A stretch of DNA of 64,000 nucleotides from Desulfomonilia bacterium (GTDB lineage Bacteria > Desulfobacterota > Desulfomonilia > UBA1062): contig JBEKDT010000017.1 in the NCBI GenBank assembly GCA_050014195.1, positions 44,561-108,560 of the forward strand, in the 5' to 3' direction. Shown here one piece after another: positions 1-16,340 of the stretch; position 1 is the first letter of the stretch; every line of letters begins with the position of its first letter. The translations under genes and the position numbers were made by a program. The notes under the pieces were generated by a model. The model ran no database searches. It saw nothing but the letters and a program-made list of their open reading frames with translations, and was not told where the DNA came from.

Positions 1-256
1 CAGCGATTACTCCCTGGCCAGCCAAAAGGGAAGATTAATCGCATTATTGGTATTAATCCCAGGAAAGTTATTACAATATCTTGAAATGTATTCGAGGTAA
101 TATTTGAAAAGCCTCCTGAGAAGTCCTAGAAACAATTGGTATATACATGCATCGCTAATTGCTCGACAAGGTATTCAGAGAATTCTCCCATGGTCGGGTA
201 TTTCTTGATCTCGTTGAGAAAATCTAAAATTATCTAATGAAAGGGATCATTGTGTA

Positions 257-1396
257 ATGAAGAAAGTCATGATTGTTTTTGGCACAAGACCGGAAGCAAT
301 AAAACTTTGCCCCTTGGTGATAGCTCTGAAAAGAATTAATGAGAATTTCAAAGTGATAACGTGTGTAACGGCCCAGCATAGAGAGATGCTTGACCAAGTC
401 CTTGGTCTCTTTCATATAAGCCCCGAGTTTGACCTCAACCTCATGAAGAGCAATCAGACTCTGTTCCAGATCACAGTGAGCGTTCTCACCCAACTCCATG
501 AGATTCTTAGCAGGGAGCCTATAGACATGATGATTGTGCAGGGCGACACTACGACCACGTTTGCCGCAGCGCTCTGTGCATACTACCACAAGATATCCAT
601 CGGCCATGTAGAAGCTGGCCTCCGTACATGGAATAAGTATTCCCCATACCCAGAAGAGATGAACAGAAAACTCACGACCGGGCTTGCAGATCTTCACTTT
701 GCACCAACGAAAAATAATAGTGAGAATCTTCTTGCCGAAGGGGTCCCGGAGGAAAGGATTATTGTCACCGGCAATACGGTCATTGACGCGCTTCTCTGGG
801 TTAGGGAGAAGATACGCAACGAAAGGAAGGAATTCCAGGAACTGAATGGAATTGACTTCACGAAGCGAATTGTACTTGTGACAGGCCACAGGAGAGAGAG
901 CTTCGGACAGGGTATTGTTAATATCTGCAATGCCCTTAAGGACATTGCTTTTAGAAACCAAGATATCGAAATAGTATACCCGGTTCACCTAAATCCAAAT
1001 GTATGGGAGCCAGTGAATTCCATTCTATCCGGTATTGGTAATATAAAGCTGATTGAGCCGTTGGACTATGAGCCTTTTGTTCTTCTCATGGATAAGTCAT
1101 ATCTAATCATTTCGGATTCCGGTGGCATACAGGAGGAGGCACCATCACTAGGAAAGCCAGTGTTGGTGACACGCGACAAGACTGAACGTCCAGAGGCTCT
1201 AGCTACAGGGGCTGTCAAACTTATAGGCACGTCCAGGGAAAGGATCGTTACACAGGCACAGCAGCTCCTCGACGATCCTGAGACATATAAGCGTATGTCT
1301 ATTATTCAAAATCCATATGGTGATGGCTATGCATGTGAGAGGATCATTGGAGCTATAAGCAACTATTTCTCGTTGCATAACGAATCATTATTATAG
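257..1396 (+). CDS. wecB: UDP-N-acetylglucosamine 2-epimerase (non-hydrolysing)
   Basis: N-terminal VFGTRPEAIK, QGDTTT, HVEAGLRT, TGHRRES, SDSGGIQEEAPSLGKP and NPYGDG motifs. Confidence 0.96.
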   Translation: MKKVMIVFGTRPEAIKLCPLVIALKRINENFKVITCVTAQHREMLDQVLGLFHISPEFDLNLMKSNQTLFQITVSVLTQLHEILSREPIDMMIVQGDTTTTFAAALCAYYHKISIGHVEAGLRTWNKYSPYPEEMNRKLTTGLADLHFAPTKNNSENLLAEGVPEERIIVTGNTVIDALLWVREKIRNERKEFQELNGIDFTKRIVLVTGHRRESFGQGIVNICNALKDIAFRNQDIEIVYPVHLNPNVWEPVNSILSGIGNIKLIEPLDYEPFVLLMDKSYLIISDSGGIQEEAPSLGKPVLVTRDKTERPEALATGAVKLIGTSRERIVTQAQQLLDDPETYKRMSIIQNPYGDGYACERIIGAISNYFSLHNESLL

Positions 1397-1399
1397 CAA

Positions 1400-2506
1400 A
1401 TGAATGTACTCCATATAATATCGGGAGACCTATGGGCAGGGGCTGAGGTTCAAGCAAATTCACTTGTTCTTTCATTAGCAAAGATTGAGAATTTTAACTT
1501 GCATGTTATTACCTTTAATAAGGGTATACTTGCTTTAAAACTGCATAGAGAAGGCATACCAGTTACCATTTTTGATGAGAATAAGCATTCAATGATCGCC
1601 TTGATTTTAGGATGTTTACAGGTAATGAAGACCTTTCAACCTGATATTGTACATGTTCATGGATTCAAGGAGAATCTCTTGGGAGGAATTGCTGCTAGGC
1701 TTGTTCAAGACAGGGTTATGATACGAACCCATCATGGTAAGGGTATGATCGGTTCCACGCAAAAATATAACATGATTGAGCGCTTCAATGCTAACTTTCT
1801 AACAAATAAAATTATTGCAGTTTCTCATGATCTCAAGAGGTTCCTGCAGGAGCACGGGCTTCCTGCTCCAAAGATCACGGTTATACATAATGGTATAGAA
1901 GTGCATACCTCTGTCAATGATAAGATAATTAAGAAACTATGTGTGGAGTTGGGAATACCTGATGATATGAAGATTATAGGCACTGTGGGGAGACTTGTCC
2001 CCATAAAAGATCATAAGACTTTTCTGTTTGGCGCAAAATTGATTTTGGAGAGCGAACCCAATGTAAGATTTGTGATTGTTGGTGATGGACCTCTGATGGC
2101 TGAGCTTAAAAAACAGTCCTATGAACTCGATATAGCGACACATGTATGTTTCACAGGATTCAGGGAAGATACGGATATCCTACTAAACATGTTTGATGTG
2201 TTCTGCCTTACATCAATTCATGAAGGAATTCCCATGGCTCTACTCGAGGCCATGAGCCTTGGAAAACCCATTGTGGCCACACGTGTCGGTGGAATAAGTG
2301 AAGTGATTGATGATAATGGCAGTGGATTGCTGATTGACTCTGAAAATCCCCAATCTTTCGCTGATGCATGCATCAAAGTCCTGCGAGATAAAAACCTTAG
2401 GGCATCCCTTTCCGAACGAGCCGTTTCAGTGGTGAAGGAAAAATTTACCTTGGATGTTACTGTAAGGTTAACTCAAGATCTATACCGGAGGGTTGTACAA
2501 TCATGA
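1400..2506 (+). CDS. Glycosyltransferase family 4 (GT-B)
   Basis: GRLVPIKD, VGDGP, FTGFR and EGIPMALLEAMSLGKPIVATRVGG (E-x7-E) motifs; starts 3 nt after wecB. Confidence 0.93.
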   Translation: MNVLHIISGDLWAGAEVQANSLVLSLAKIENFNLHVITFNKGILALKLHREGIPVTIFDENKHSMIALILGCLQVMKTFQPDIVHVHGFKENLLGGIAARLVQDRVMIRTHHGKGMIGSTQKYNMIERFNANFLTNKIIAVSHDLKRFLQEHGLPAPKITVIHNGIEVHTSVNDKIIKKLCVELGIPDDMKIIGTVGRLVPIKDHKTFLFGAKLILESEPNVRFVIVGDGPLMAELKKQSYELDIATHVCFTGFREDTDILLNMFDVFCLTSIHEGIPMALLEAMSLGKPIVATRVGGISEVIDDNGSGLLIDSENPQSFADACIKVLRDKNLRASLSERAVSVVKEKFTLDVTVRLTQDLYRRVVQS

Positions 2507-3699
2507 ACATCCTCTATATCTGGGATGCAGATTACCCTTGGGATGTCCGGGTGGAGAAGATCTGTTCAACCTTGGCTAGTCATGGTCATAAAGTTCATAT
2601 TGCTGCAAGGAACCTTAAAAGACTCCCGGAATATGAGATCAGTTCTGATCTGATGATCCATCGACTCAAAGCATGGCAAAATGCGAGAATGAATTATTTA
2701 CTCTCGTTCCCTGCTTTTTTTAACCCAGTCTGGAGCCATTTCCTTGACAGGATCATCGGAGACAATGGTATTGATATTATCATCGTCCGCGACCTCCCCA
2801 TGGCCATCGCAGGAATTTGGGCAGGAAAGCGCCACAACATTCCTGTTATCTTTGATATGGCAGAAGATTATGTTGCCATGGTATGGGATATCTGGAGAGC
2901 AAGGAAGTTTCAAGCGCTGAACTTTCTGGTAAGGAACCCCTATCTTGCAAAGCTCGTTGAAAATTACGTCTTCAAGAAGTCTGATCAAATTCTTGTTGTT
3001 GTAGAGGAGGCAAGAGACCTTGTCATTGCAAGAGGCGTGATGCCTGAAAAGGTGACAATAGTTGGCAACACTCCTGTCTTGGATGATTTCATTCAGGCCG
3101 ATGTTGTTTCAAATGAAATTATTGATCAGATACGAAGCAGGCACTCTGTCATTTATACCGGAGGCATCCAAATGGGCAGGGGAATACAGGTGGTCTTCGA
3201 TGCCATACCCGAGATTGTAAAGGAGATAGCCGATTTCCTTTTTGTGATTGTGGGAGATGGATATGCAACACCAATACTTAAAGAGATGATGAGGGAAAAA
3301 AAAGTTCAGGACCATGTACTTTGGGTTGGCTGGGTTGACCATAAGTTTATTTTTGATTACATCAGAGCCTGCAAGGCAGGTATAATTCCTCATTTTACAT
3401 CTGATCATGTGCACACAACAATCCCGAACAAAATATTTGACTACATGGGATTAGGTTTACCGGTGGTTTCCTCTGATGCTGTACCTATGAAGAGGATTCT
3501 GGAACAGGAGATATGCGGTGTTACTTTTAAGAGTGGTGACCCAATAGAATTAGGAAGAGCTATCGTAAGTACATATATGTCTGATGTTAACTATGGGATG
3601 AATGGAATCAGTGCAGTAAAAGAAAAATATAATTGGGCGGAAGATAAAGATAGATTACTTAAGGTTATATCAAGCATAAAAAAGAAGAAGTTCAATTGA
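2503..3699 (+). CDS. Glycosyltransferase family 4 (GT-B)
   Basis: DVRVEK N-terminus, YTGGI, VGDG, PNKIFDYMGLGLPVVSSD; ATGA overlap with the upstream GT. Confidence 0.9.
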   Translation: MNILYIWDADYPWDVRVEKICSTLASHGHKVHIAARNLKRLPEYEISSDLMIHRLKAWQNARMNYLLSFPAFFNPVWSHFLDRIIGDNGIDIIIVRDLPMAIAGIWAGKRHNIPVIFDMAEDYVAMVWDIWRARKFQALNFLVRNPYLAKLVENYVFKKSDQILVVVEEARDLVIARGVMPEKVTIVGNTPVLDDFIQADVVSNEIIDQIRSRHSVIYTGGIQMGRGIQVVFDAIPEIVKEIADFLFVIVGDGYATPILKEMMREKKVQDHVLWVGWVDHKFIFDYIRACKAGIIPHFTSDHVHTTIPNKIFDYMGLGLPVVSSDAVPMKRILEQEICGVTFKSGDPIELGRAIVSTYMSDVNYGMNGISAVKEKYNWAEDKDRLLKVISSIKKKKFN

Positions 3700-3779
3700 T
3701 AAAATCATGACATCAATAAGACGAGGTTTCTATTGTTGATATTCAAGTTACTTTATTATCATGAAACAAATGAGGATTT

Positions 3780-3796
3780 GAAACCTTTGCACAACC
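3780..3796 (+). repeat. Solo IS-type terminal inverted repeat motif (GAAACCTTTGCACAACC)
   Basis: Matches the ends of the 142-bp element at 16487-16628 and copies at 5888, 10954 and 11097. Confidence 0.5.
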
Positions 3797-3900
3797 CGGA
3801 TAATTTGAGGTTTTTAAAAAATAATGCCATAAAGACTGTCAGAGAACAGTATTCAATTGATACAACCATTAGTAAACTCATCTCACTGTATGGTGACTGA
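3787..3900 (+). pseudogene. Probable remnant of a GT4 glycosyltransferase C-terminus
   Basis: Frame reads LHNPDNLRFLKNNAIKTVREQYSIDTTISKLISLYGD*, resembling the terminal helices of GT4 enzymes; no ATG start in this frame. Confidence 0.45.
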
Positions 3901-4070
3901 ATATTGGCTTATCCAGATATACAGTATGACTATGTTGATACCATTCCGATATTATTACGCAAAGGCCTTATGTGACATTAAGCCGAATGATGGACTGGAA
4001 AGGGTCGTTAAGCGAATGAAATGATCAAGATTCAGAAATGGGAATTCGAAGTACAAAAGATTCTCGCTAA

Positions 4071-5615
4071 TTGACCGGGAAAGTCGAAGAACCAATGCGT
4101 GTTAAGAATTGGGAAATGAAAGAGCAATCAGATACCGTGGAGGTATCCGCAGATGTAGACGGCTTTCGCCTGTGGTTCCGATCACCAAAGTCCTATCCAG
4201 TTTCAAGAACAGGCGATCCCTTCCTGGCATCCGCGCTTCTTCCGGCGATGCGCCAAGGAGAGAAGCTTGAGTTTGACCCACGCCTGCCCGTTTCCCCGAA
4301 GTTACTGAGAAATGCTTTTGTGCTCCAGGAAATTTTCCATTCCTGGAATCCTGAAGAATTGAGAATGATCCCCGTCAGCGCTAAGACATCACCTGCCGAG
4401 CCGCTTAATACTGGCGCCATGTCCTTCTTCTCGGGAGGCGTGGACAGCATGTACACTTTTCTGAAGCGTAAGAATGAGCTCAGCCATGTGGTTAATATAT
4501 ATGGATTCGATTTCTTCTTCAACAGCGGGGATGCCTCGACATTCTCGGTTGCTGACCTCAAAGACTTGGCGCATTTCGCATGGAAGCTGATGTTACCGGT
4601 TGGCCCGGTGTCTGCCTACTTAAAGGGCATGCTCTCGAAAACAACGCTGCAAACTCTATCAAATTACGTAGATTCGGGCTCAGATCCAGGAGCAGTGGAA
4701 ACAAGTCTGGTAGAGGATCTTAACAAGATCATCTCCGGGCAGTTGATCTACGACAGAAAGCGCTTTGCGGGTGTCAACTTGCGGCCGCAAACAAGACATT
4801 TTATGTCGCGGGACCTGAAGGGAGAGGACCTGAGCGGCCTGAACCGGCTTCTTCTGGAGGACGCTTATCCACGTGAAATATCGGGAAAGTATAATGGAGC
4901 CTACCAGACGGCCATCGAGCGCAACACCTGCTTCGTTCAAAGCTTTGGGAAGACCCTCGTCCCTGTCGAGAATAATCATTATGCTTTTGGATATCGCTAC
5001 AATCTGAGTAGAAATTTAACACAGGGAAGTGCCTTGGCCAGTGTCGCGCTTCTCCTTGGGTTTCCTCAAGTCTATGTGCCATCTGCTTATACTTACAGGC
5101 AGCTATGTCCTTTGGGTTCGCACCCGCTGACGGATGGGCTATGGTCGAATGAATGTGTAGAAATCATACACGATGGCTGCGAGGCGGGACGGACAGATAA
5201 GCTCAAGATGATATGCGAATGCGAATCAGCTCTTACGAATTTAAGGGTCTGCTTCGATAATGTGAATATCAATTGTGGAAAGTGTGCAAAGTGTTTGCGC
5301 ACAATGATGCCCCTAAAATTGCTTCGTGCCTCTGCCGCCCCTTTCCCAACTCTTCCTTCCCTCAAAGTAATTCGGAAAAGCCGTATCTCTGATGATATCG
5401 AAACGAGCTTCTTCAAGGAGACGGTCGACCTTGCTTTGCAGACAGGAGACCAAGAAATGCGGTATGCTTTATGCGCATGTATGAAAAGGAATGAACTATT
5501 AAAGCTCCTAATAGATCTCGATAAGGTGCTCCTGGGGGGATTCATCAAGCGTGCATATCGAAGAATAGTGCCTGGTATAGGGATCCGTCGAATTGATACT
5601 ACCCCGAGAGATTGA
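4071..5615 (+). CDS. QueC-like PP-loop ATP-pyrophosphatase family protein with C-terminal Cys cluster and an approx. 120-aa inserted domain (likely start ATG 4095)
   Basis: SFFSGGVDS PP-loop; GSHP...WS...HDG; C-x7-C-x2-C-x2-C (RVCFDNVNINCGKCAKC). Confidence 0.7.
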   Translation: MTGKVEEPMRVKNWEMKEQSDTVEVSADVDGFRLWFRSPKSYPVSRTGDPFLASALLPAMRQGEKLEFDPRLPVSPKLLRNAFVLQEIFHSWNPEELRMIPVSAKTSPAEPLNTGAMSFFSGGVDSMYTFLKRKNELSHVVNIYGFDFFFNSGDASTFSVADLKDLAHFAWKLMLPVGPVSAYLKGMLSKTTLQTLSNYVDSGSDPGAVETSLVEDLNKIISGQLIYDRKRFAGVNLRPQTRHFMSRDLKGEDLSGLNRLLLEDAYPREISGKYNGAYQTAIERNTCFVQSFGKTLVPVENNHYAFGYRYNLSRNLTQGSALASVALLLGFPQVYVPSAYTYRQLCPLGSHPLTDGLWSNECVEIIHDGCEAGRTDKLKMICECESALTNLRVCFDNVNINCGKCAKCLRTMMPLKLLRASAAPFPTLPSLKVIRKSRISDDIETSFFKETVDLALQTGDQEMRYALCACMKRNELLKLLIDLDKVLLGGFIKRAYRRIVPGIGIRRIDTTPRD

Positions 5616-5648
5616 GCAGGATTTTCAGCTGGTATGTTGTTGGCTGCA

Positions 5649-5663
5649 TGGCCTCTGCTTTGC
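5649..5663 (+). promoter_or_regulatory. Possible sigma54 -24/-12 promoter
   Basis: TGGCCTCTGCTTTGC has the exact GG-N10-GC spacing; followed by a purine-rich RBS and a 29-aa GTG ORF (5696-5785). Confidence 0.3.
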
Positions 5664-5887
5664 AAAATTGCATGAATGAAGGGGGAGTCCTTCCTGTGAT
5701 CAATTTGGACTTGATCGCTATGAGCCTACCACCACTTGAGGCCCTTGAACAATTCCCATTGTGGCAAAACTTGGTTAGGAGCTGATATTCGACAATAATG
5801 GCATTTAATCCAATGATATCATTGCATTAAAATTGATATATTTTCTCTATCTTGAAATTCATGGGGAGTGCTGGAATGGGATATAAG

Positions 5888-5903
5888 GAAACTTTTGCAC
5901 AGC
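5888..5903 (+). repeat. Degenerate solo IS-type terminal inverted repeat (GAAACTTTTGCACAGC)
   Basis: Similar to the GAGACCTTTGCA motif repeated elsewhere in the island. Confidence 0.4.
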
Positions 5904-6002
5904 TCACCGGTGATTAGACGCAGATTTGGAGCTGATAATCTGTGATAACAGCAATTATCCAATTGATATTATTAATGATAACTGGTAGTCTTACTTATCA
6001 TT

Positions 6003-6098
6003 TAATCTCGTTTAGGGTTAATTCCCACGCTGCTTGCTGCGAAGGCATATTCTTTATAAAAAAATTTGAACCCTATAGCTTGCTGCAGGGTAGTTCAA
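6003..6098 (+). mobile_element. IS200/IS605-type end relic or non-autonomous palindromic element
   Basis: Two GCTTGCTGC-containing motifs; the second, GAACCCTATAGCTTGCTGCAGGGTAGTTCA, is a hairpin followed by the GTAGTTCA tail typical of IS200/IS605 right ends; no tnpA/tnpB. Confidence 0.5.
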
Positions 6099-6118
6099 AA
6101 TGAAACAATTGAGGACTT

Positions 6119-7873
6119 ATGAAAAAATTTACATTTAATCTGTTTCACGGGCAGAAGCCCTCCAATAATCAGGAATTTATAAAATGTTTCCCTACCTGGT
6201 GGTACTATACTGAAGGAATACCTGTAAAAGCAGGTGACTTAAATGGAAATGCTAAGTGGCTTCTGGCGGGTCGGCTCTTAAATGATCAGGATCCGAGTAA
6301 AATTATAGATTATTTTTATAGGCGACGTGATTACGAGTATCTATATCAAATTGATGGCCAGTTCATTTTTATTCTGTATTTTGAGAATGATGGAAGCGTT
6401 GAGATATATCGCGACCGTATTGGTACATTCCCAATTGCATATGCACAAGGTCGAAATGGTATTGCCATATCTGTAGATATTAATGACGTAAAGGATATGA
6501 CCGGTATAGTTCCTTCACCATCAACCGGTATCTTTGAACAATGGCCATTATATCGCAAAACATTTGCACCGGTTTCACCATTTTATGAAATTCATACCCT
6601 TGCCCCGGAGCATTCTTTACGTATCACAGGCTCTTCTTTTAATGAGATCAGTCACCCCATGTGTTTCCCTACTGAAGAAGAATATCCTGATATGAATATA
6701 TCGAGCCAGGTCTTAGGTGACGTACTTTCACGATCGATCCAGAAGAGAATTGAGATTTCAAAGAGAATGGGGGTCTTTCTCAGCGGGGGGAATGATTCCA
6801 GTTTGATTGTGGCAATTGTTAGAAAGTTCTATTTAAAAAAACTGAGAACACTCTTTGTCACATTTGAAGATAACCCTAGGGATTATGGTCATCATGCCCA
6901 GGAGGTAGCCGACAGGTTCGGCACCGATCATTCTTCTGTCACATTGAGCCCGAGAGACTATGTTGGAGTCTGGGCAGACACGATTAAAGTGCTGCAAACG
7001 CCTGTTCCTATGCCGTGTCATATAGGGATTCATCATGCCTTAAAAATGCTTTCAGGTGATGTTGATTTGATGATTGATGGCGATGGTGCTGATACGGTTT
7101 TTGGAAGCTCAATATGGCCAGAGATGATATTTTTATCACGTATTAATAGATTTATCCCAACATACCTGAAAGATGGTATCGGAAGATTGGCACATTCAAT
7201 GTCTTGTAATACGACCATAGTGCGAATAGCGGAGATGATTAAGACGGCCCTTAATTCTTCTCTCTATGAATACCCCCATGTAAATGCAGCAATGATTTCT
7301 GAAAGTGAATTCAATCAGATCTTTCTAAGAGGTGACTGGCAACAGGCAGTTCATTTCAGACAAGGCTTCGCAAGGGGTGATTTCTATAAAGGATTGTTTT
7401 CTTATCTTATGTTGCATGGTATACCGGAAGATCTCGCCACCACTGTCCGCTTGGGTTTGTCGCAGGGCATTTTCTTTGCGTATCCTTTCTTGGATTATGG
7501 TTTATTGCAGGCATCAATGCGATTGCCCAATAAACATCGGTATCATTACCGCATCCGTAAGGCGCCTTTGAAAAAATATTCTTTGAATTATTTCGACAAG
7601 GATTTCGTATATAAACCAAAGGAAGGTTTCGGTGTTCCTCTTGCTTCATGGTTCACGAAGAAAGAATTTGAGCCTTTCCTGATGCTGCCTCTCGAAGAGC
7701 GCAGCTTAAAACGTGGGTGGTGGAAGGAACTCGAGTTAAAGAGGATAATAGATTTGCACCGGAGGGGAGAGGGCAATGACAGTTCAGCAGAGGCTATACC
7801 ATGGATTGTAATCAATTTGGAATTATGGGCTCGTATATGTATCGATGGGGATTCTCCGAGTCAGTATAAATAA
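6119..7873 (+). CDS. Asparagine synthetase-like (AsnB) amide ligase with degenerate glutaminase domain
   Basis: DGQF..RDRIG, LSGGNDSS PP-loop, DGDGAD, YPFLD, KPKEGFGVP, NLELW; no N-terminal MCG. Confidence 0.85.
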   Translation: MKKFTFNLFHGQKPSNNQEFIKCFPTWWYYTEGIPVKAGDLNGNAKWLLAGRLLNDQDPSKIIDYFYRRRDYEYLYQIDGQFIFILYFENDGSVEIYRDRIGTFPIAYAQGRNGIAISVDINDVKDMTGIVPSPSTGIFEQWPLYRKTFAPVSPFYEIHTLAPEHSLRITGSSFNEISHPMCFPTEEEYPDMNISSQVLGDVLSRSIQKRIEISKRMGVFLSGGNDSSLIVAIVRKFYLKKLRTLFVTFEDNPRDYGHHAQEVADRFGTDHSSVTLSPRDYVGVWADTIKVLQTPVPMPCHIGIHHALKMLSGDVDLMIDGDGADTVFGSSIWPEMIFLSRINRFIPTYLKDGIGRLAHSMSCNTTIVRIAEMIKTALNSSLYEYPHVNAAMISESEFNQIFLRGDWQQAVHFRQGFARGDFYKGLFSYLMLHGIPEDLATTVRLGLSQGIFFAYPFLDYGLLQASMRLPNKHRYHYRIRKAPLKKYSLNYFDKDFVYKPKEGFGVPLASWFTKKEFEPFLMLPLEERSLKRGWWKELELKRIIDLHRRGEGNDSSAEAIPWIVINLELWARICIDGDSPSQYK

Positions 7874-7940
7874 AATATGGAAGATAATTATAAAAAATCT
7901 TAAGTAGATACAAGGACTGCTTCTAGAAAAGGTAGATAAA

Positions 7941-9077
7941 ATGAAGATTGGTATTATACGAACTTCGCATAAGGAAAATGAACGTCGTGTCCCGATATAT
8001 CCGGAACACTTACCATGGATTGACCTTGAGTTGAGGAAACATCTTGTTTTCGAGAGTAATTATGGGCAGGATTATGGCTTTTCAGATGAATATTTTATTC
8101 GACATCAATCAAGTTTGTCTGACCGCCAGGGACTATTTAAGACATGTGATATGTTAATTCTACCGAAACCTATTCTTCAAGATTATGAACAGATGAAGGA
8201 ATTTCAGACAATATGGGGATGGCATCATTGTGTCCAGGGTAGGAAAATTTCCCAGGCAGCAATTGATCGAAAATTGACTTTGATTGCCTGGGAGGCCATG
8301 CACCAATGGAGTAAAGGCGGAGAACGCCTTATGCACTCTTTTTATAAAAACAATGAAATAGCTGGTTACTCTGCTGTTCTACACGTCTTGGAGTTGCTGG
8401 GTGTTGATGGGCACTATGGACCGAGGAAAAATGTTATTATTATTGGATACGGTTCAGTCAGTCGCGGAGCAATCTATGCTCTTCAGGGAAGAGGATACAA
8501 TAATATTCATGTCTATACCCGACGCCCAGTACATTTAGTAGCAGATCAGAATCCCGATGTGTATTATCATCATCTAGAAGTTGCACCAAATGGTCAGATG
8601 TTTGGGGTCCATAATGATAGATCAAGACGTCCTTTCGTTGAAGAACTTGCTGAAGCAGATATTATCTGCAATGGTATTCTTCAGGATACAGATAATCCTC
8701 TGATATTTGTAGATGAAAAAAATATTGATCTTCTAAAACCTCGGTCTGTAATTATTGATATCAGTTGCGATGAGGGTATGGGCTTTTCTTTTGCACGTCC
8801 AACGACATTTAAAGACCCCATTTTTTCAGTAGGACAAAATATCACTTACTATTCCGTTGACCATATTCCATCTTATCTTTGGAATGCGGCCTCAAGGGAA
8901 ATTTCAAGAGTTGTGCTATCTTTTCTGCCGATTTTAGCCGGGGGAATTCAATCCTGGTGTGAATGTGAGACTGTTAAAAAAGCCATTGAGATACGTAATG
9001 GCGTTATACAAAACCCCAAAATACTGTCATTTCAGAATCGACAAGAGGAATATCCACACCTAGAAGTAATTACATAA
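7941..9077 (+). CDS. ceo: N5-(carboxyethyl)ornithine synthase family (AlaDh/PNT fold) NAD(P)H-dependent reductive condensation enzyme
   Basis: SHKENERRVPIYP, GWHHCVQ, AWEAM, FYKNNEIAGY, IIGYGSVSRGA Rossmann motif, NGILQDTDNP, IDISCDEGMGF, VDHIPS. Confidence 0.85.
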   Translation: MKIGIIRTSHKENERRVPIYPEHLPWIDLELRKHLVFESNYGQDYGFSDEYFIRHQSSLSDRQGLFKTCDMLILPKPILQDYEQMKEFQTIWGWHHCVQGRKISQAAIDRKLTLIAWEAMHQWSKGGERLMHSFYKNNEIAGYSAVLHVLELLGVDGHYGPRKNVIIIGYGSVSRGAIYALQGRGYNNIHVYTRRPVHLVADQNPDVYYHHLEVAPNGQMFGVHNDRSRRPFVEELAEADIICNGILQDTDNPLIFVDEKNIDLLKPRSVIIDISCDEGMGFSFARPTTFKDPIFSVGQNITYYSVDHIPSYLWNAASREISRVVLSFLPILAGGIQSWCECETVKKAIEIRNGVIQNPKILSFQNRQEEYPHLEVIT

Positions 9078-9188
9078 TAATGTGTTAACATCCCCAATAA
9101 TAACCATATTTGATGCTATTGGGTGTCTCGCTGAAGACCATTCTTTTGCATCATACAAAATAGGGAATTAAGCAGTAGCCAAAGATAT

Positions 9189-10526
9189 ATGCATCCATTC
9201 ATAGCCAAACATCTCATTTATTATCCAATCCAGCTCCTTAGGGGCCAGATAGTCAGAAGATATAAACACCGGGTTATCTCCTGCCAAATTGCACCTACCA
9301 AAGTGATTTATGAAATCCGTGATAAGAAGATATGTGACCTGATCAAGTATGCCTATAACTATATTCCCTACTATCGTGAAAAATTTGATGAGCGAGATAT
9401 TAATCCAGACCGGATCAAAGGATTTAATGATCTGTCATGTCTTCCAATACTGTCTAAGCTTGATATTTTGACTAATGAACATAATCTCATTTCACACAAT
9501 TGTAGCCAAAAACTGTATACCAGAAAAACCAGCGGATCGACCGGAATGACCCTCCACTTTCAGAAAGAGGCCAGGGCACTGGCGCTCAATGATGCCGTCA
9601 TGTACCGCTGCTATGCATGGTATGGTATCGATATCGGGGATAAACAAGTTAGGTTCTGGGGGGTGCCGGTAGACCCCGCTCTGAGACGAAGGGAAAAGGT
9701 CAAAGACTTCATCCTAAACAGGATCAGGATCTCGGCTTTCGATATCTCCGAGCAATCCTGTCTGGCGCAGTACCAGAGAATAAAGCGGTTTAGGCCGGCA
9801 TATTTTTACGGTTATACTACCGCCATCTACGGTTTCTGCTCCTTTGCACAGAAGCTCGGCCTTGACCTTAATACACTTGGTCTGAGGGCCGTCATCTGCA
9901 CTGCTGAGAAGATGTACCCGCATCATCAGGATCTTTTCGATAAGGTGTTCAAATGCCCTGTGGTTGATGAATACGGTTCCAGCGAGAACGGCATCATCGC
10001 CTTCCAGTGTAAAGAGGGGAGCATGCATGTGATGGCGGATCATCTGGCCGTTGAATTTGTAGATGAAGCCGGGCAGAGGGTTAAACCCGGCGAGCTTGGA
10101 AGGATTGTTATAACGGATCTCAATGGATACGCCATGCCCCTTATACGGTATGAGATAGGCGATATGGGAAGGTATACGGAACAAGCATGTTCATGTGGAG
10201 TAACTTTGCCGGTGATGGACATCATTGAAGGGCGCAAAGAGGATTTCATCCGGACCCGGGAAGGAAAGCTCATCCATGCGGCCTACCTCTGTTATACCCT
10301 GAAGGATGACGCCGTCCATGAATTCAAAATGTATCAGAAGGATCTCAACAGGTTTCTTGTCCAGATAGTCAAATCGAATAAGTTTAATGCAGACTCCCAG
10401 AAGAAGCTCGAACATAAACTCAGGACAGCCCTGGGGGATAGCGTAGTTTTTGAGTTCCAGTTTCTGGAAAGGATTCCGAGAGAGGCATCAGGCAAGCTCA
10501 GATATTTCATCTCTGAAATCCGGTAA
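9189..10526 (+). CDS. Phenylacetate-CoA ligase family / CapK-like adenylate-forming enzyme
   Basis: IPYYR, LPILSK, KTSGSTG P-loop, DEYGSSE, ITDL, MPLIRYEIGD, IEGR, SGKLR. Confidence 0.88.
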   Translation: MHPFIAKHLIYYPIQLLRGQIVRRYKHRVISCQIAPTKVIYEIRDKKICDLIKYAYNYIPYYREKFDERDINPDRIKGFNDLSCLPILSKLDILTNEHNLISHNCSQKLYTRKTSGSTGMTLHFQKEARALALNDAVMYRCYAWYGIDIGDKQVRFWGVPVDPALRRREKVKDFILNRIRISAFDISEQSCLAQYQRIKRFRPAYFYGYTTAIYGFCSFAQKLGLDLNTLGLRAVICTAEKMYPHHQDLFDKVFKCPVVDEYGSSENGIIAFQCKEGSMHVMADHLAVEFVDEAGQRVKPGELGRIVITDLNGYAMPLIRYEIGDMGRYTEQACSCGVTLPVMDIIEGRKEDFIRTREGKLIHAAYLCYTLKDDAVHEFKMYQKDLNRFLVQIVKSNKFNADSQKKLEHKLRTALGDSVVFEFQFLERIPREASGKLRYFISEIR

Positions 10527-10642
10527 CGATTACAGAGAATAATCCAGCAGGCAAAAGGCATAACCTGATAATCATATAAAAAGCTCAACAAGGCCATTGC
10601 GGATGACGTTCAAGAAGGAAAAAAGAGGAGCAGGGAACCGCG

Positions 10643-10912
10643 ATGGAATTGTATGCCGGATTGGATCTGCATTCACAGTACACCTACATTGGAGTGCTTG
10701 AGAAAGGGAGTATGAGGAAGGTGTTTCAGATGAGGGTATCGAATGAACTGCAGAGGATTATCTCTGCACTGGAGCCATTCAGAAATGAGCTCCAAGGTAT
10801 TGCGATAGAGAGTACTTTCAATTGTTACTGGCTTGTGGATGGGCTTATGGGTAGAGGGCAAAAGGGGAAAATCGGGCAGCAGATACAGCTCGAATTCATG
10901 GTGTTTGAATGA
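10643..10912 (+). pseudogene. Truncated IS110-family transposase (N-terminal RuvC-like DEDD domain only)
   Basis: YAGLDLHS and IAIESTFNCYWLVDGLM motifs; similarity ends near aa 68 and runs into unrelated sequence. Confidence 0.8.
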
Positions 10913-10953
10913 AGAATGAACCTAAATCACCAGATCCGATCCTGACCTGGAAA

Positions 10954-11109
10954 TATGCAAAGGTCTCGTATGGAGTGTGGGAATACCACCGGAAAGAGCA
11001 GATAATGGAGGAAATAGGCAGTAAACTAAGCTTTATTTCTTGAGATTTTCATGAAAAAAGCACCAATCAGTTTCCTCCGATTCCTTTCTTGTCCTTGTGC
11101 AAAGGTCTC
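10954..11109 (-). repeat. Two tandem IS-type right-end motifs (TGCAAAGGTCTC), each followed by GTATGGAG
   Basis: tatgcaaaggtctcgtatggag at 10954 and gtgcaaaggtctctgtatggag at 11097. Confidence 0.6.
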
Positions 11110-11128
11110 TGTATGGAGAACATCTCAA

Positions 11129-12223
11129 ATGGACAGTGAAATTTATGATAGATATTCAATCGAAGTGGATAGCATAGGAGCAGAAGAATGGAACACTGTG
11201 CTCAGAGTATTCTCTGATGCGTCTATATTTCAAACATATGAGTATGGGGTCGAAAATTGGGGAAAGAACCATCTTAGTCATATAGTATTAAGAAAGGATA
11301 ATGATATAGTGGCTGCTTCCCAAGTCTGGGTGGTAGAACTCCCGATTTTAAAATGTGGTTTTGCCCATATTCCGTGGGGCCCCATGTGGAAATGCAAAAA
11401 TCGAGAAAGAGATGTACAGACTGTTAGAATGATGCTTAGAGCGCTAAGAGATGAGTATGTGGAAAAGAGAGGACTTCTGCTGAGGTTAAGGGGTTACTCG
11501 GTATCGGGTACGGATGAAGGCAATGAAGTTATTCAACAGTTGAGCGAAGAAGGATTTACGTTCCAAAAGAGGGAAGCCGCATATCGTACGTATCGAATTA
11601 ATCTGACCAAGAGTTTGGAAGAACTGCGTACTAAGTTTAAAGGAAACTGGCGGAGAGATTTAATCAAGGCAGAGAGACAAGATCTAGAGATAGAAATAGG
11701 GAATAGTGTTTCCATGTTAGTGGTATTTTCAGAGATATATAAAGATATGGTTAGGAGAAAAGGCTTTAAAGAGTATGTTGCAGACATGAACAAATACATC
11801 GAAATGCAGAGAAGGTATCGGGATGATTTGAAGATGAATATCTTTTTATGTAAGCATGAGGGAACTTATGTAGCTGGCGCTGTTGTTCCGGCAATAGGTG
11901 ATACGGGGATGTATTTATTAGGGGCAACGAGTACTATATGTTTTGAAAAGAAATTACTTGCTTCTCACCTGATCCAGTGGCGAGTTCTCAGTTGCTTGAA
12001 ATCAAATGGATTCCGATACTATGACTTACGTGGAGGGATCGATGGTGACATGGAGGGAGTTAGGCATTTCAAAAGCGGTCTTTCTGGGGAGGAGATTCAC
12101 TACATAGGTTCGTATGAGTGTTCTCATAGAGTGTTAAGTGAGGTTGCCGTACGTACTGGTGAACATATTCAAAGAATGAAAGCCGGTCTACAAAATTTTG
12201 TGTGGAAGTTAGCAAGTAAATAA
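11129..12223 (+). CDS. FemAB/FemX-like GNAT-fold aminoacyl transferase (ORF open from 11051; likely start 11129 after GGAG)
   Basis: SIFQTYEY, IPWGP, YRTYRINLTKSLEELR..F..NWRR, YLLGAT, LIQW, YYDL, FKSG. Confidence 0.82.
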   Translation: MDSEIYDRYSIEVDSIGAEEWNTVLRVFSDASIFQTYEYGVENWGKNHLSHIVLRKDNDIVAASQVWVVELPILKCGFAHIPWGPMWKCKNRERDVQTVRMMLRALRDEYVEKRGLLLRLRGYSVSGTDEGNEVIQQLSEEGFTFQKREAAYRTYRINLTKSLEELRTKFKGNWRRDLIKAERQDLEIEIGNSVSMLVVFSEIYKDMVRRKGFKEYVADMNKYIEMQRRYRDDLKMNIFLCKHEGTYVAGAVVPAIGDTGMYLLGATSTICFEKKLLASHLIQWRVLSCLKSNGFRYYDLRGGIDGDMEGVRHFKSGLSGEEIHYIGSYECSHRVLSEVAVRTGEHIQRMKAGLQNFVWKLASK

Positions 12224-12314
12224 GCAGATCTTTGAAGTCAATAGCTCTGATAGTGGCCTGGCAATGTCGCTTTCCTGGAAATAATCGTACTATTCGAGAG
12301 GATAAGTTAAACCT

Positions 12315-14018
12315 ATGAAAGGGCGTATTACATTCGGTTACCCCGATGATACGAAAGATGTTATTGTTCGCCTTCAGGGAGAGATATGGTCGATCCAAGG
12401 ACAGTCAACTCAGGGCATGGATATTCTTGAGCGGATTAAAATTGAATACTTGAATAAAGGAGTTGCTCTATTTGAAAAATTAGATGGATCATTTTCTCTT
12501 GTCATCGAAGATCATCAAAAAATGAAACTCTTTCTTGTACGAGACAAGCTCGGCACTATTCCTCTGTATCACGCAAAAAAAAGATGTACATTTACCTGGG
12601 GCAATCTCATAAGTGATATCCTTTCTGACCTGGAAATTGAAACGTCAGCCAATCATGATGTAATTCATGAATACTTAGTGTTTCGTTATGTTAGCGGGAG
12701 GAATACTCTTTTTCAAGGAATTCATGAGCTTTTACCGGCACATTATCTAGAGGTTGACCTTAGAAAAGGAGAAGTAGAGGAAAAGCAGTATTGGGATATT
12801 CCTTATCCCTGTAAATCTGAAATGATTAAAGATAATGATGAAACCTGTGTCGATAAAATAGAAGAGATTCTAATACGTATTCTCAAAAGAACTTTAAGTA
12901 AGAATTGTCGCTATGGAATCATGTTGAGCGGTGGGCTTGATTCAAGCCTGATAGCAGCTCTTGCGTCAAAACATGTTAATCATGGTTTCCCAACATTCTT
13001 TATAGGATTTACAGATTATGAGAGTGATCGCTCTCATGATGCCCAAATGGTAGCAGAAACATATCATATGATCCATTCAAATTTCTATGTTAACTCAAAA
13101 CAGTATGCTGAAGGTCTTATAGAAGCAATCAGAACCAACGAGGAACCACTTAACCATCCCGGTCATGTAGGAAGGGTTCTTTTCGATTCTCATACAAAAG
13201 ATAAAGTTGATGCTCTCCTTATGGGAGAAGGAGTCGATACAATGTTTTGTGGGGCAAAGGCTTACCCACTTCTTAAATATGGTTATATGTTCAATCCATT
13301 CAGGAAATTAACTAGGAGAATATTTTCATTGATAGACCCAGAAATAATTCCCGACTCACATAAGCGGTACTACACAAAGATAAGAGATGCATTTGTCATG
13401 AATGCTGATGAGTATATGATCCGAACTTTTGCAGCGGCAGAATTTCAAGAGGCAAGTGATCTATTGGAGCTTGAGGCTGATATGAGCTATCTTAACTATT
13501 ATAAAAGCTTTATATCTGAATGTACGAGAGAAAATGTTCTTGAGAAATACCTTATGCTCAATCAGCACACATTTATAGTTGAAGTACTGAATTCTGATGC
13601 AAAGTATAGAGAATTAAACCAAATAATTAATTATTATCCATTCCTGGATGTCGAATTACTATCGTTTTCAAATCACATTCCATTTAAAATACGGACCAAG
13701 GGGTTCACGGGAAAATATCTCATCAAGAAACTCGCTGAGAGATATTTTTCCAAGCATTTCATATATCAGCAAAAAGAGGGCTTTGGTGTGCCTTTGAAGA
13801 CCTACTTCCAGGATCCAGAGAGTATGGGGAGATATTTTGACCTCCTTTTGGAGAAGAGGACAATGGAAAGAGGAATTTTTAAAAGGAGAGAACTCTCTAA
13901 TTTTGTTGAAGGATTTCGGAAAGGCGAAATGCCTTCTGAGAGTTATGAGTCTTTGCTCTGGACTGCAATTAACCTTGAGTTATGGTACAGGATTTTTATC
14001 GATAGGAATGGTGTATGA
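12315..14018 (+). CDS. Second asparagine synthetase-like amide ligase lacking the N-terminal catalytic Cys
   Basis: LDGSF, RDKLGTIPLY, LSGGLDSS, GEGVD, YPFLD, KEGFGVP, NLELWYR. Confidence 0.87.
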   Translation: MKGRITFGYPDDTKDVIVRLQGEIWSIQGQSTQGMDILERIKIEYLNKGVALFEKLDGSFSLVIEDHQKMKLFLVRDKLGTIPLYHAKKRCTFTWGNLISDILSDLEIETSANHDVIHEYLVFRYVSGRNTLFQGIHELLPAHYLEVDLRKGEVEEKQYWDIPYPCKSEMIKDNDETCVDKIEEILIRILKRTLSKNCRYGIMLSGGLDSSLIAALASKHVNHGFPTFFIGFTDYESDRSHDAQMVAETYHMIHSNFYVNSKQYAEGLIEAIRTNEEPLNHPGHVGRVLFDSHTKDKVDALLMGEGVDTMFCGAKAYPLLKYGYMFNPFRKLTRRIFSLIDPEIIPDSHKRYYTKIRDAFVMNADEYMIRTFAAAEFQEASDLLELEADMSYLNYYKSFISECTRENVLEKYLMLNQHTFIVEVLNSDAKYRELNQIINYYPFLDVELLSFSNHIPFKIRTKGFTGKYLIKKLAERYFSKHFIYQQKEGFGVPLKTYFQDPESMGRYFDLLLEKRTMERGIFKRRELSNFVEGFRKGEMPSESYESLLWTAINLELWYRIFIDRNGV

Positions 14019-14038
14019 CCAAGGTTAATGGAGGTTGA

Positions 14039-15190
14039 ATGTACACGAATCCTCAGAAATTGGGAATTATTAAACCACTCAGTCACATGAATGAACTTTT
14101 CAAAATCGAGGATATGTGGAGAAATATATATGAAACGGTATCTCCTAATTCAATTTTTATTTCTTTTGACTATATTATGCTGTGGTATAATTGCTTTGCT
14201 AGGCCCGAGCAGGTGAGGGTCTATCCAGCATATGAAGGTGATAAAATTATAGGTTATCTTCCATTAATATTAAATAAAAAAGGGCCATTTCGGTTTCTGT
14301 CAAGCCTTACCAATCTACATTGCTTTCACCCTGCTGCACTAATTGCTGAAGGTTATGAAGAGACATTTTCTAACAGTTGCTTGCACGCAATATTTTCAGA
14401 TAAATGCGGCTGGGATGTTTTTCAATACCGTAGCGGCTACTCCTTCCAATATGGTCTAAGTTTGAGCATACTAAGTCCATTAGCCTATCACTTCAAAGAA
14501 ATCAAACTACCAACATATTCTATGCTTATACCAGGTTCTTTTGAAGAATATTTCAATAAGCATCTATCCCCTCAAATGCGTAAAAATGCAAAAAGCTCAA
14601 AAAAAAGGCTACAAACAGTTCCCTCATATAGATTTTGCCACTATACAGGAGATGATGCTGTTGCATCATGGCCTACGTTTCTATCGATTGAAGATTCTGG
14701 GTGGAAGGGAGTAAAAGGTTCATCATTAAAGAAGCTTCCTCAGAACTATCATTCATATTATGTAGGCCTCATCGATATGTTATCTAAAAATAACCAGTTA
14801 CACATGTATTTTCTCGAAATCAATGGCCACCCTGTTGCGGGTACATTCTGTTATGTGGATCAAGATGTGTTTCACGCTTGGAAGGCCGGATACGTAGAAG
14901 AATTTTCCTCGCTCTCTCCCTCAACCCTGCTCTTACTTTATATCATAGAAGATCTCAATACTAATTTTCCAATGGTGAAACGTCTGCACATGTTTCCTGG
15001 TGATTTTGGCTATAAACACCGTTATGTTAACGAAGAATCTTTTTATTCTGAAGTCGTCTTGTACGATAGAACAATTCTCGGAAGTTCCGCACATATTCTT
15101 TCCCCGATAAAACAAAGAGTTGAGCTACTTCCAGGTATGTCTGCTGCCATTGGGTTTATTAGAAAGCATTTTTTTAGAGATGATGATTAA
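14039..15190 (+). CDS. GNAT-family acyltransferase (CelD/BcsL-like, Acetyltransf_6 type)
   Basis: SFEEY, IEDSGWKG, FLEING.PVA, KAGY...F...SP..LL, YK motifs. Confidence 0.8.
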   Translation: MYTNPQKLGIIKPLSHMNELFKIEDMWRNIYETVSPNSIFISFDYIMLWYNCFARPEQVRVYPAYEGDKIIGYLPLILNKKGPFRFLSSLTNLHCFHPAALIAEGYEETFSNSCLHAIFSDKCGWDVFQYRSGYSFQYGLSLSILSPLAYHFKEIKLPTYSMLIPGSFEEYFNKHLSPQMRKNAKSSKKRLQTVPSYRFCHYTGDDAVASWPTFLSIEDSGWKGVKGSSLKKLPQNYHSYYVGLIDMLSKNNQLHMYFLEINGHPVAGTFCYVDQDVFHAWKAGYVEEFSSLSPSTLLLLYIIEDLNTNFPMVKRLHMFPGDFGYKHRYVNEESFYSEVVLYDRTILGSSAHILSPIKQRVELLPGMSAAIGFIRKHFFRDDD

Positions 15191-15410
15191 CCATACAACG
15201 CAATGTGTGATTTGAGAAGTGTACCGCTCCTTATCTATTCCCTGAACTGAGCCCAGGAAAATAGAGACAGACAGAGATCAATCATCGTAATATCCAGTGT
15301 GTAAACATTCTGATCCAATTACCCCGAAGGATTTTCCGGTATAAAGCGATGCCTGCCTGCCAAGGCTTCGCTTAGGTTATTTCGATTAATGAGAACATCT
15401 TGATTTAGGC

Positions 15411-15427
15411 TGTCGGGAATCTTTACA
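15411..15427. promoter_or_regulatory. Putative enhancer-binding site for a sigma54 activator (PrsR-type), copy 1: TGTCGGGAATCTTTACA
   Basis: 17-bp TGTCG-N6-TTTACA box repeated at 15514 and 16379, upstream of a PEP-CTERM gene. Confidence 0.7.
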
Positions 15428-15513
15428 ATTCTAAATTTATCATCTTTATTTATGAATATCAAACACATATAAGCTATTATACCAACGAATTAATTAAAAT
15501 TAATTCATAAAAT

Positions 15514-15530
15514 TGTCGAAATACTTTACA
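15514..15530. promoter_or_regulatory. Putative enhancer-binding site, copy 2: TGTCGAAATACTTTACA
   Basis: Same box about 65 bp upstream of the -24 element. Confidence 0.7.
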
Positions 15531-15595
15531 CAAATACTCCGATATTTATCTTGTCTGGAGTAATTAAAGCTTGTAAATCAAAGAGATACGTTAAT

Positions 15596-15611
15596 TGGCA
15601 TTAATATTGTA
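15596..15611 (+). promoter_or_regulatory. Sigma54 promoter of the PEP-CTERM gene (TGGCATTAATATTGTA; GT variant at -12)
   Basis: Correct -24/-12 spacing, AT-rich IHF-like stretch upstream, AGGAGG RBS downstream. Confidence 0.65.
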
Positions 15612-15645
15612 TAACTATCATTAATAAAAATATACAGGAGGTCAT

Positions 15646-16278
15646 ATGAAAAAAACTTTCATGACAATCGCAGCACTTTTTATTGTGCTCGGATTCACAG
15701 CATCAGTAGGAGCAACTACAATTCAAATTGTCGGCAGCTATTCGACTCTGGATTCGCTGACCTTCACTCTTCTTGGCCACACCTACCACGACCAGTTGGT
15801 GGGTGAGTTTAATCTCCTTATCGATAGCAAGCCGGAAACAGGATATTGTGTTGACTTGGGTCATCTTTTATATGTTCCCAGCGGACCCTTTAATGTAAAC
15901 CTTACTAGCGATCTGACCGATGAGGGCGATGTCCCCAACGGGTATGAAGCAGCATGGTTGTGGAACTATGTGGGTGATGCTCTAGATAAGGACCATAGAG
16001 CAGCGTTGCAGTTGGCAATATGGGATGTTGTGTTTGGGCCGGTTACCGGTATCTCCGAGCCGGCAGTCGCCGCAGAATACAATGCTTACTTAGCAGATCT
16101 TGCATTATATAGCTCATTTAATGGTGCAGGGTATGCTATTGCTGAACTAGGTGACCTACGCACACCATACCAGGATCTGCTGGTAAAAACCCCCGCCCCC
16201 GTTCCTGAGCCCATGACACTGTTGCTTCTCGGGTCAGGTCTTCTCGGACTGGCAGGATTCAGAAGGAAGATGAAATAG
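15646..16278 (+). CDS. PEP-CTERM sorting-domain surface protein with thioester-domain-like motifs
   Basis: Signal peptide; YCVDL and ALQLAIW motifs; C-terminal VPEP + TM helix + RRKMK. Confidence 0.93.
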   Translation: MKKTFMTIAALFIVLGFTASVGATTIQIVGSYSTLDSLTFTLLGHTYHDQLVGEFNLLIDSKPETGYCVDLGHLLYVPSGPFNVNLTSDLTDEGDVPNGYEAAWLWNYVGDALDKDHRAALQLAIWDVVFGPVTGISEPAVAAEYNAYLADLALYSSFNGAGYAIAELGDLRTPYQDLLVKTPAPVPEPMTLLLLGSGLLGLAGFRRKMK

Positions 16279-16305
16279 TAATACAACATATTGACTGGGT
16301 TTCAG

Positions 16306-16340
16306 AGGCAGGGCCATTGAAAGGCCCTGCCTTTTTATTT
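16306..16340 (+). terminator. Rho-independent terminator
   Basis: AGGCAGGGCC-loop-GGCCCTGCCT followed by a T-rich tract. Confidence 0.85.

Follow-up and report, generated by a model that had tools for sequence, protein, structure and literature searches.

In this study, one gene of a Desulfomonilia bacterium was investigated within a stretch of 64,000 nucleotides (contig JBEKDT010000017.1, positions 44,561 to 108,560 of the forward strand), hereafter called the window. The gene, located at 7941-9077 on the + strand, encodes P0001, a dehydrogenase of 378 amino acids (aa) with the L-alanine dehydrogenase (AlaDH)/PNT fold that resembles N5-(carboxyethyl)ornithine synthase (Ceo), as recognized from the list of open reading frames (ORFs), from Pfam and from its homologues. 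We observed that P0001 and its nearest relatives recur beside ATP-dependent ligase genes and among polysaccharide genes in several bacterial phyla, and this genome context supports the view that the product of this subgroup serves as a building block for glycans. With a confidence slightly better than even, we propose that P0001 makes an opine-type amino acid, from putative substrates discussed below, which the neighbouring ligase would attach to the exopolysaccharide through an amide linkage.

For the analysis of genome context, we examined 80 of the 582 loci confirmed from species genomes and 80 of the 591 from metagenomes, which are cited here by number. A single-protein scan of the genome contigs returned no relative, and the loci were found by an alignment-based scan. 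Strict all-against-all clustering of the neighbour proteins gave nearly no shared neighbours and was replaced by Pfam scans of the three genes on either side in L003-L047, after which all loci were scanned with local hidden Markov models (HMMs) made from the annotated neighbours. A branch with a Shimodaira-Hasegawa-like approximate likelihood ratio (SH-aLRT) support of 99 under two models sets 133 rows apart from 22 others, P0001 among them, and the latter are referred to as the subgroup; after identical sequences had been dropped, all counts refer to 21 subgroup rows and 129 others. An ATP-dependent ligase gene was noticed within 400 bp in 17 of the 21 subgroup rows and in one of the 129 others (Fisher p 1e-17), and a glycosyltransferase (GT), Wzx or Wzy gene was found in the fetched flanks of 15/21 and 4/129 (Fisher p 1e-12), with p-values that ignore the relatedness of the loci and overstate their independence. 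The independent Pfam scans (three genes on either side, L003-L047) agree with these HMM-based counts. The subgroup rows that showed no ligase neighbour are L022, L087, L092 and L093, among which L087 and L093 have flanks shorter than 1 kb. Three further loci, L011, L020 and L060, were excluded from the tree as cut or split matches; of these, L011 and L020 likewise show ligase genes near the homologue. The recurrent ligase and polysaccharide context spans Planctomycetota, Verrucomicrobia, Ignavibacteriota, Acidobacteriota, Syntrophobacteraceae and Aminicenantes.

A preliminary description of this DNA had suggested that glycans are modified with the product as a building block, and had proposed looking for GT genes near the homologues and for a clade of those linked to exopolysaccharides. 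The genome context of the subgroup bears out the suggestion, whereas the chemistry it assumed, pyruvate with ornithine or lysine, is still a proposal. The enrichment near GT genes holds for the subgroup with P0001 and fails for the family as a whole, and the polysaccharide-linked homologues are set apart by the well-supported branch without being resolved as a clade.

The ligases found beside the dehydrogenase homologues belong to several unrelated kinds. TupA-like ATP-grasp genes were detected in L007, L008, L010, L086, L088, L089 and L090, and RimK/LysX-like ATP-grasp genes in L003/L085, L004, L108 and L143. A QueC-like PP-loop gene lies within 400 bp of the homologue in L005, L006, L007, L009, L011, L033 and L086, and at 3.7 kb in L020. 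AsnB-like genes stand beside the dehydrogenase gene in the window, L020 and L113, and PaaK-like genes in the window and in L126, where the distance to the homologue is 18 bp. Several of these ligase genes overlap the dehydrogenase gene or sit 0-19 bp from it.

Outside the subgroup, a different neighbourhood was observed. In L012, L017, L047, L073, L077, L111 and L156, a gene whose product carries the domains Sacchrp_dh_NADP and Sacchrp_dh_C was found at a distance of 8-119 bp from the homologue, which shows 48-51% identity, and these seven homologues fall in one clade of 14 rows with a support of 96. A Sacchrp_dh-family gene within 400 bp was thus recorded in 7/129 of the other rows and in 0/21 of the subgroup, a difference that is not significant. 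A class I lysyl-tRNA synthetase gene stands beside the pair in L017 and L047, and the other neighbours of the family include amino-acid permeases, an arginase-family gene and cyanophycin synthetase. The Sacchrp_dh-family partners received no NCBIfam name and could be polyamine enzymes. As a separate observation, such pairs may represent a split bacterial lysine-ketoglutarate reductase (LKR)/saccharopine dehydrogenase (SDH) that uses a Ceo-like protein.

The gene itself was found to be genuine, as the preliminary description had it. The ORF at 7941-9077 begins with ATG, encodes an intact product and carries, as judged by eye, an AAGG-type ribosome-binding motif about 8-10 nt 5' of its start. 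Both domains of the family score above their Pfam gathering thresholds, with 44.9 bits against 30.4 for AlaDh_PNT_N (PF05222) and 51.6 bits against 23 for AlaDh_PNT_C (PF01262). Because homologues in the protein database search align over residues 1-378 with up to 89% identity (E down to 6.6e-239), the frame is a real gene with the correct start and no chance frame; the family counts 7326 matches at E <= 0.001 among 8000 scored candidates. A search of sequencing runs located the source DNA in peat and wetland metagenomes.

With respect to family placement, P0001 is closer to the Ceo reference than to AlaDH or PntA, judging from sequence comparison. It shares 25% identity with a 314-aa Vagococcus protein annotated by NCBI as N(5)-(carboxyethyl)ornithine synthase (pairwise E 1e-24, 17% gaps). 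Ceo together with the family is split from Ald, the paralogue of the own genome and PntA with a support of 100 in both trees (159 rows under LG+G4; 74 rows under LG+C20 with posterior mean site frequencies, PMSF, in a quick search), which hold four reference sequences only (Ceo, Bacillus Ald, the own paralogue and PntA), include no LKR, show a long Ceo branch and take as Ceo reference an annotated, itself uncharacterised protein. The preliminary description had named clustering with alanine dehydrogenases as an outcome that would speak against it, and P0001 groups instead with Ceo, away from AlaDH and PntA. Its term "Ceo homologue" holds at the family level, by identity and tree grouping, and not as closer kinship: 25% identity, 378 aa against 314 (the Ceo type has about 313 aa) and the extra segments described below fall short of an orthologue-level match. 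An identity as L-alanine dehydrogenase was ruled out by a score of 61.3 bits against the TIGR00518 equivalog cut-off of 391.85, and an identity as PntA by 30-39 bits against pntA cut-offs of 383-444. The own genome encodes a separate AlaDH-type protein, with AlaDH-domain scores of 281 and 160 bits, that groups with Bacillus ald in the tree. When PDB sequences were matched with the family profile, AlaDH was recovered at E 8e-23, and the yeast LYS1-type (L-lysine-forming) saccharopine dehydrogenase showed no full-length similarity, matching at E 2e-3 over residues 233-337 only. A search for longer, fused LKR/SDH-type forms of the family found none, which is weak evidence. Some family members are already named "N5-(carboxyethyl)ornithine synthase" or "alanine dehydrogenase" in databases; the Ceo name is used by PGAP for a 44%-identical Streptomyces plasmid protein, by JGI for several homologues, and in ESM Atlas cluster names.

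The AlphaFold2 model of P0001 (predicted local distance difference test, pLDDT, 89.6) has the two-domain AlaDH fold, and its best PDB matches in Foldseek are the AlaDHs of M. tuberculosis (2VHW, 2VHX and 2VHV; template modelling, TM, scores 0.76-0.79). R16 and H96 of P0001 align with R15 and H96 of AlaDH, and K76 lies at most one residue off K75; these AlaDH residues are those we take to be pyruvate-binding and catalytic. R16, K76 and H96, together with D273 and D277, the aspartates of a DxxxD stretch, are kept in at least 97% of the 150 family rows, while N137, Y143, H148 and N244 are common to P0001 and the Vagococcus Ceo protein and not to AlaDH. After strand beta-2, T193-R194-R195 of P0001 aligns with Y-R-K of the Vagococcus protein. 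As a rule, basic residues after beta-2 indicate NADPH, and because T-R-R stands at this place, aligned with the Y-R-K of Ceo, NADPH is suggested as the cofactor of P0001.

The surrounding locus is a genuine exosortase/PEP-CTERM, Wzx/Wzy exopolysaccharide cluster. In the 16 kb that precede the window, we found a GT2, an exosortase, a DUF3485 (EpsI-like) gene, two acetyltransferases and three GT4, together with a Wzx-type flippase, one Acyl_transf_3 and one Wzy_C protein, and a polysaccharide deacetylase. Within the window and all on the + strand, Pfam and NCBIfam scans identified wecB (257-1396) and two GT4 glycosyltransferases (1400-2506 and 2503-3699). The "polysaccharide operon" of the preliminary description is therefore borne out by the GTs, the exosortase, Wzx and Wzy_C, with the qualification that a remnant of an IS110-family transposase follows the PaaK-like gene. 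This remnant (10643-10912, +) corresponds to the N-terminal ~68 aa of an 89-codon ORF, which matched annotated IS110 transposases in tblastn with E down to 2e-14, no match spanning 80% of the query; a role of this ORF (orf89) as a carrier protein was thereby ruled out.

On the + strand, the gene of P0001 sits between an AsnB-like gene (6119-7873) and a PaaK/F390-synthetase-type adenylate-forming gene recognized by domain scans (9189-10526), at distances of 67 and 111 bp, respectively; all three share this orientation, and the co-oriented placement given in the preliminary description is thus confirmed. The AsnB-like PP-loop amidoligase (Asn_synthase E 1.2e-44), of which a 53%-identical counterpart adjoins the dehydrogenase homologue in L020, is followed further on by a second one (12315-14018, +), identified by domain scans and its N-terminus. 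Both lack the glutaminase nucleophile Cys2, with N-termini MKKFTF... and MKGRIT..., respectively, and of the glutaminase domain no more than the end can be detected. Because Cys2 is missing, both enzymes are unlikely to use glutamine-derived ammonia, and another amine would be the likely nucleophile. Upstream, at 4071-5615 (+), lies the gene of P0122, a QueC-like PP-loop protein whose family has no name and whose database homologues start at Met9 (4095). It harbors an SGGVDS motif as well as a cluster of Cys residues at the C-terminus, and it had no sequence match in Pfam or PDB; its 660 homologues are almost all labelled "hypothetical", and its top fold match is the QueC-like QatC, with a probability of 0.97 yet a marginal E of 4.6e-3. 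A shorter paralogue family of ~383 aa matches ~45% of this protein and adjoins it in some genomes. The ligase candidates of the window are hence PP-loop and ANL-type enzymes, and no ATP-grasp gene was found in the window.

Downstream of the IS110 remnant, domain scans revealed a FemAB-family aminoacyl/peptidyl-transferase-like gene (11051-12223, +), an Acetyltransf_6 (FemAB-like GNAT) gene (14039-15190, +) and a gene for a protein with a PEP-CTERM sorting signal (15646-16278, +), after which a terminator-like hairpin at 16304-16334 is the only strong site on the + strand. A UDP-glucose 6-dehydrogenase-type (Ugd) gene for uronic-acid supply lies 2.3 kb beyond the locus on the opposite strand (18556-19881, -); it reached 463 bits against the 190-bit cut-off of the NCBIfam model for NDP-sugar dehydrogenases, and 504 bits with the TuaD model, under its 700-bit cut-off. 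The G+C content is 46.7% over 4001-6000 and about 40-42% on both sides. Three other observations are recorded here: a 602-aa ORF just 5' of the window within the exopolysaccharide locus (L167:13798-15606, +) gave no Pfam or NCBIfam match; a BKACE-family protein beside the Ugd-type gene, just outside the locus (17471-18304, -), scored 233 bits with the 3-keto-5-aminohexanoate cleavage model, which has a cut-off of 382; and a G+C content of 38-47% in the polysaccharide locus (1-16000 of the window) against 58-63% in the 44-54 kb block makes a strong compositional mosaic.

The reaction, substrates and cofactor that we infer for P0001 would make it an NAD(P)H-dependent enzyme of the AlaDH fold that joins a 2-oxo acid, either pyruvate or 2-oxoglutarate, by reductive condensation to the amine of an amino acid, most likely that of the lysine or ornithine side chain, and thereby yields an opine-type N-(carboxyalkyl) amino acid. 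These two amino acids are suggested because the family has Sacchrp_dh, lysyl-tRNA synthetase, permease, arginase-family and cyanophycin-synthetase neighbours and because Ceo uses these substrates, and P0001 might use 2-oxoglutarate because seven homologues of the 14-row clade abut Sacchrp_dh-family genes. The enzyme would be paired with an adjacent ATP-dependent carboxylate-amine ligase, either the Cys2-less AsnB-like, the QueC-like PP-loop or the PaaK-like protein, which would attach the opine residue to the repeat unit through an amide linkage, at the carboxyl of a uronic acid or at a de-N-acetylated amino sugar. The amino acid might be free or already bound to the glycan when it is modified, and the order of the steps and the point of attachment are likewise putative. 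The Ugd-type gene and the polysaccharide deacetylase of the locus were counted in favour of this proposal.

Several points weigh against it. Neither tree resolves the 22-row subgroup as a clade; it may represent a basal grade, and among the 150 rows it differs from the rest of the family by a single fixed residue, S305/A305. Because the groups differ essentially only at this position, the chemistry is probably the same in the subgroup and in the non-polysaccharide contexts of the family, to which the seven Sacchrp_dh-adjacent homologues belong. The seeds of the context HMMs were drawn from subgroup loci, a further caveat on the counts beside the relatedness of the loci mentioned above. In L009 and L033, both from metagenome-assembled genomes of Aminicenantes, the dehydrogenase homologue lies between a divergent PP-loop gene and an amino-acid permease, and no GT, Wzx or Wzy gene was found within 10 kb on either side; because dehydrogenase and PP-loop gene are paired there without such genes nearby, the pair may make a soluble product, and a glycan need not be the destination of the product. 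The cluster is also a patchwork, in which the IS110 remnant, at 117 bp from the PaaK-like gene, lies between this gene and the FemAB-like one. Finally, our literature searches found no assayed or characterised member of the P0001 family, and the sole tie to a known activity is the 25% identity to an annotated, itself uncharacterised Firmicute protein.

Among the other explanations, we regard it as unlikely, though deserving of attention, that P0001 is a lysine-2-oxoglutarate reductase that forms saccharopine, or acts in reverse, so that it would belong to lysine metabolism and its place in the locus would reflect the supply or removal of lysine or saccharopine. The seven of 129 non-subgroup homologues at 8-119 bp from a Sacchrp_dh-family gene, gathered in one well-supported clade, speak for such an activity, as do the lysyl-tRNA synthetase next to the pair in L017 and L047, the permease, arginase-family and cyanophycin-synthetase neighbours that point to basic amino acids, and the near absence of residue differences between the subgroup and the rest. 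Yet no Sacchrp_dh neighbour occurs in the 21 subgroup loci, the own genome holds no second copy of a P0001-type gene, the unnamed Sacchrp_dh-family neighbours could belong to polyamine metabolism, and the yeast LYS1-type enzyme was matched far more weakly than AlaDH; that no fused LKR/SDH-type long form was found tells weakly in the same direction. If saccharopine were formed and still ligated to the glycan, this would be a variant of the opine-ligation proposal with 2-oxoglutarate as the oxo acid.

It is rather improbable that P0001 is an ammonia-using amino-acid dehydrogenase, similar to AlaDH and acting on another 2-oxo acid, which supplies or removes an unusual amino acid for the ligases or the FemAB-like transferases. 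AlaDHs are its closest solved structures, the 2-oxo-acid-binding residues are kept, and amide-forming enzymes lie on all sides of the gene; however, P0001 groups in the tree with the Ceo-annotated protein and not with AlaDH, shares N137, Y143, H148 and N244 with the former and not the latter, and scores far under the AlaDH equivalog cut-off. We give very little credence to the notion that the gene is a passenger, unrelated to the polymer, in a mosaic cluster scarred by insertion sequences. The IS110 remnant, the raised G+C content at 4001-6000 and the 125 of 129 non-subgroup rows that have no nearby polysaccharide genes would fit a passenger, but the ligase adjacency and the polysaccharide context of the subgroup recur across several phyla, and reading frames overlap in several loci.

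Going beyond the single locus, we tentatively put forward, as a possibility that we hold to be less likely than the opine-ligation proposal for P0001 itself, that a Ceo-like dehydrogenase and any of at least four unrelated kinds of ligase form a portable cassette, which would be the missing route to opine-type glycan substituents, spread over many uncultured phyla, with the QueC-like PP-loop family among its dedicated ligases. If true, this would supply a biosynthetic route to the opine-type residues of bacterial surface polysaccharides. The Ceo-like family is large, with 7326 matches in a single search and at least 582 species genomes that hold relatives, and the context result makes this uncharacterised family directly testable. 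Among the carriers of the subgroup are cultivable ones, such as Pseudoduganella with the copy in L022. For the unnamed PP-loop family, and for the AsnB-like enzymes without Cys2 in exosortase loci, the context result also offers a first lead on function.

Among the known systems with which P0001 can be compared, Ceo of the Lactococcus lactis type (~313 aa, EC 1.5.1.24) is an NADPH-dependent enzyme that condenses pyruvate with L-ornithine or L-lysine, and to our knowledge it has no settled physiological role. P0001 shares with it the AlaDH/PNT fold family, has it as the nearest of the four named tree references, and has R16, K76, H96, N137, Y143, H148, N244, D273, D277 and the basic residues after beta-2 in common with the Vagococcus Ceo-annotated protein. 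It differs from that protein by an insertion of ~32 residues (about 199-230, predicted beta-hairpins) and by its C-terminal ~50 residues, and whereas the Vagococcus gene is a solitary plasmid gene surrounded by stress genes, that of P0001 has ligase genes as partners and lies in a polysaccharide locus. The AlaDH of M. tuberculosis (Rv2780, 2VHW/2VHX) is the best match in structure and among PDB sequences, with the 2-oxo-acid-binding and catalytic residues kept, but the identity is about 20-24% and the own genome has its separate AlaDH-type protein. Saccharopine dehydrogenase and LKR would share the kind of reaction proposed here, the joining of the lysine side-chain amine and a 2-oxo acid with NAD(P)H, and one clade of the family adjoins Sacchrp_dh-family genes; the similarity to the yeast enzyme, however, is marginal and partial (E 2e-3), in a comparison that covers the LYS1 type and not LKR.

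With regard to the ligases, the TupA-like and RimK/LysX-type ATP-grasp enzymes of acidic cell-wall polymers belong to the families that abut the subgroup homologues, whereas the window has PP-loop and ANL-type candidates in their place; TupA has been tied to the teichuronopeptide of Bacillus halodurans, a polymer of polyglucuronic acid and poly-gamma-L-glutamate, in the portion of that source drawn on here (PMC8153356). In the literature found, in which supplements and subscription journals lay outside the coverage, we noticed no gene-level link of Ceo-like or opine dehydrogenases to polysaccharide loci and no genes assigned to carboxyethyl-lysine or alanopine on glycans. In one comparative-genomics table, K00298 is listed under "cell surface structure", with no evidence attached in the part of the paper that was available (PMC8875376). 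As to the end products, the available text of PMC10609480 describes N-epsilon-(1-carboxyethyl)-L-lysine amide-linked to galacturonic acid (GalA) in the O-antigen of Providencia rustigianii O14, and alanopine on 4-amino-4,6-dideoxyglucose (Qui4N) in P. alcalifaciens O35. Although these are chemical structures from Enterobacterales, and the bacterium of the window is a peat and wetland organism known here from its genes alone, such opine substituents, as described in that text, are the kind of end product to be expected from a Ceo-like enzyme acting together with an amide ligase.

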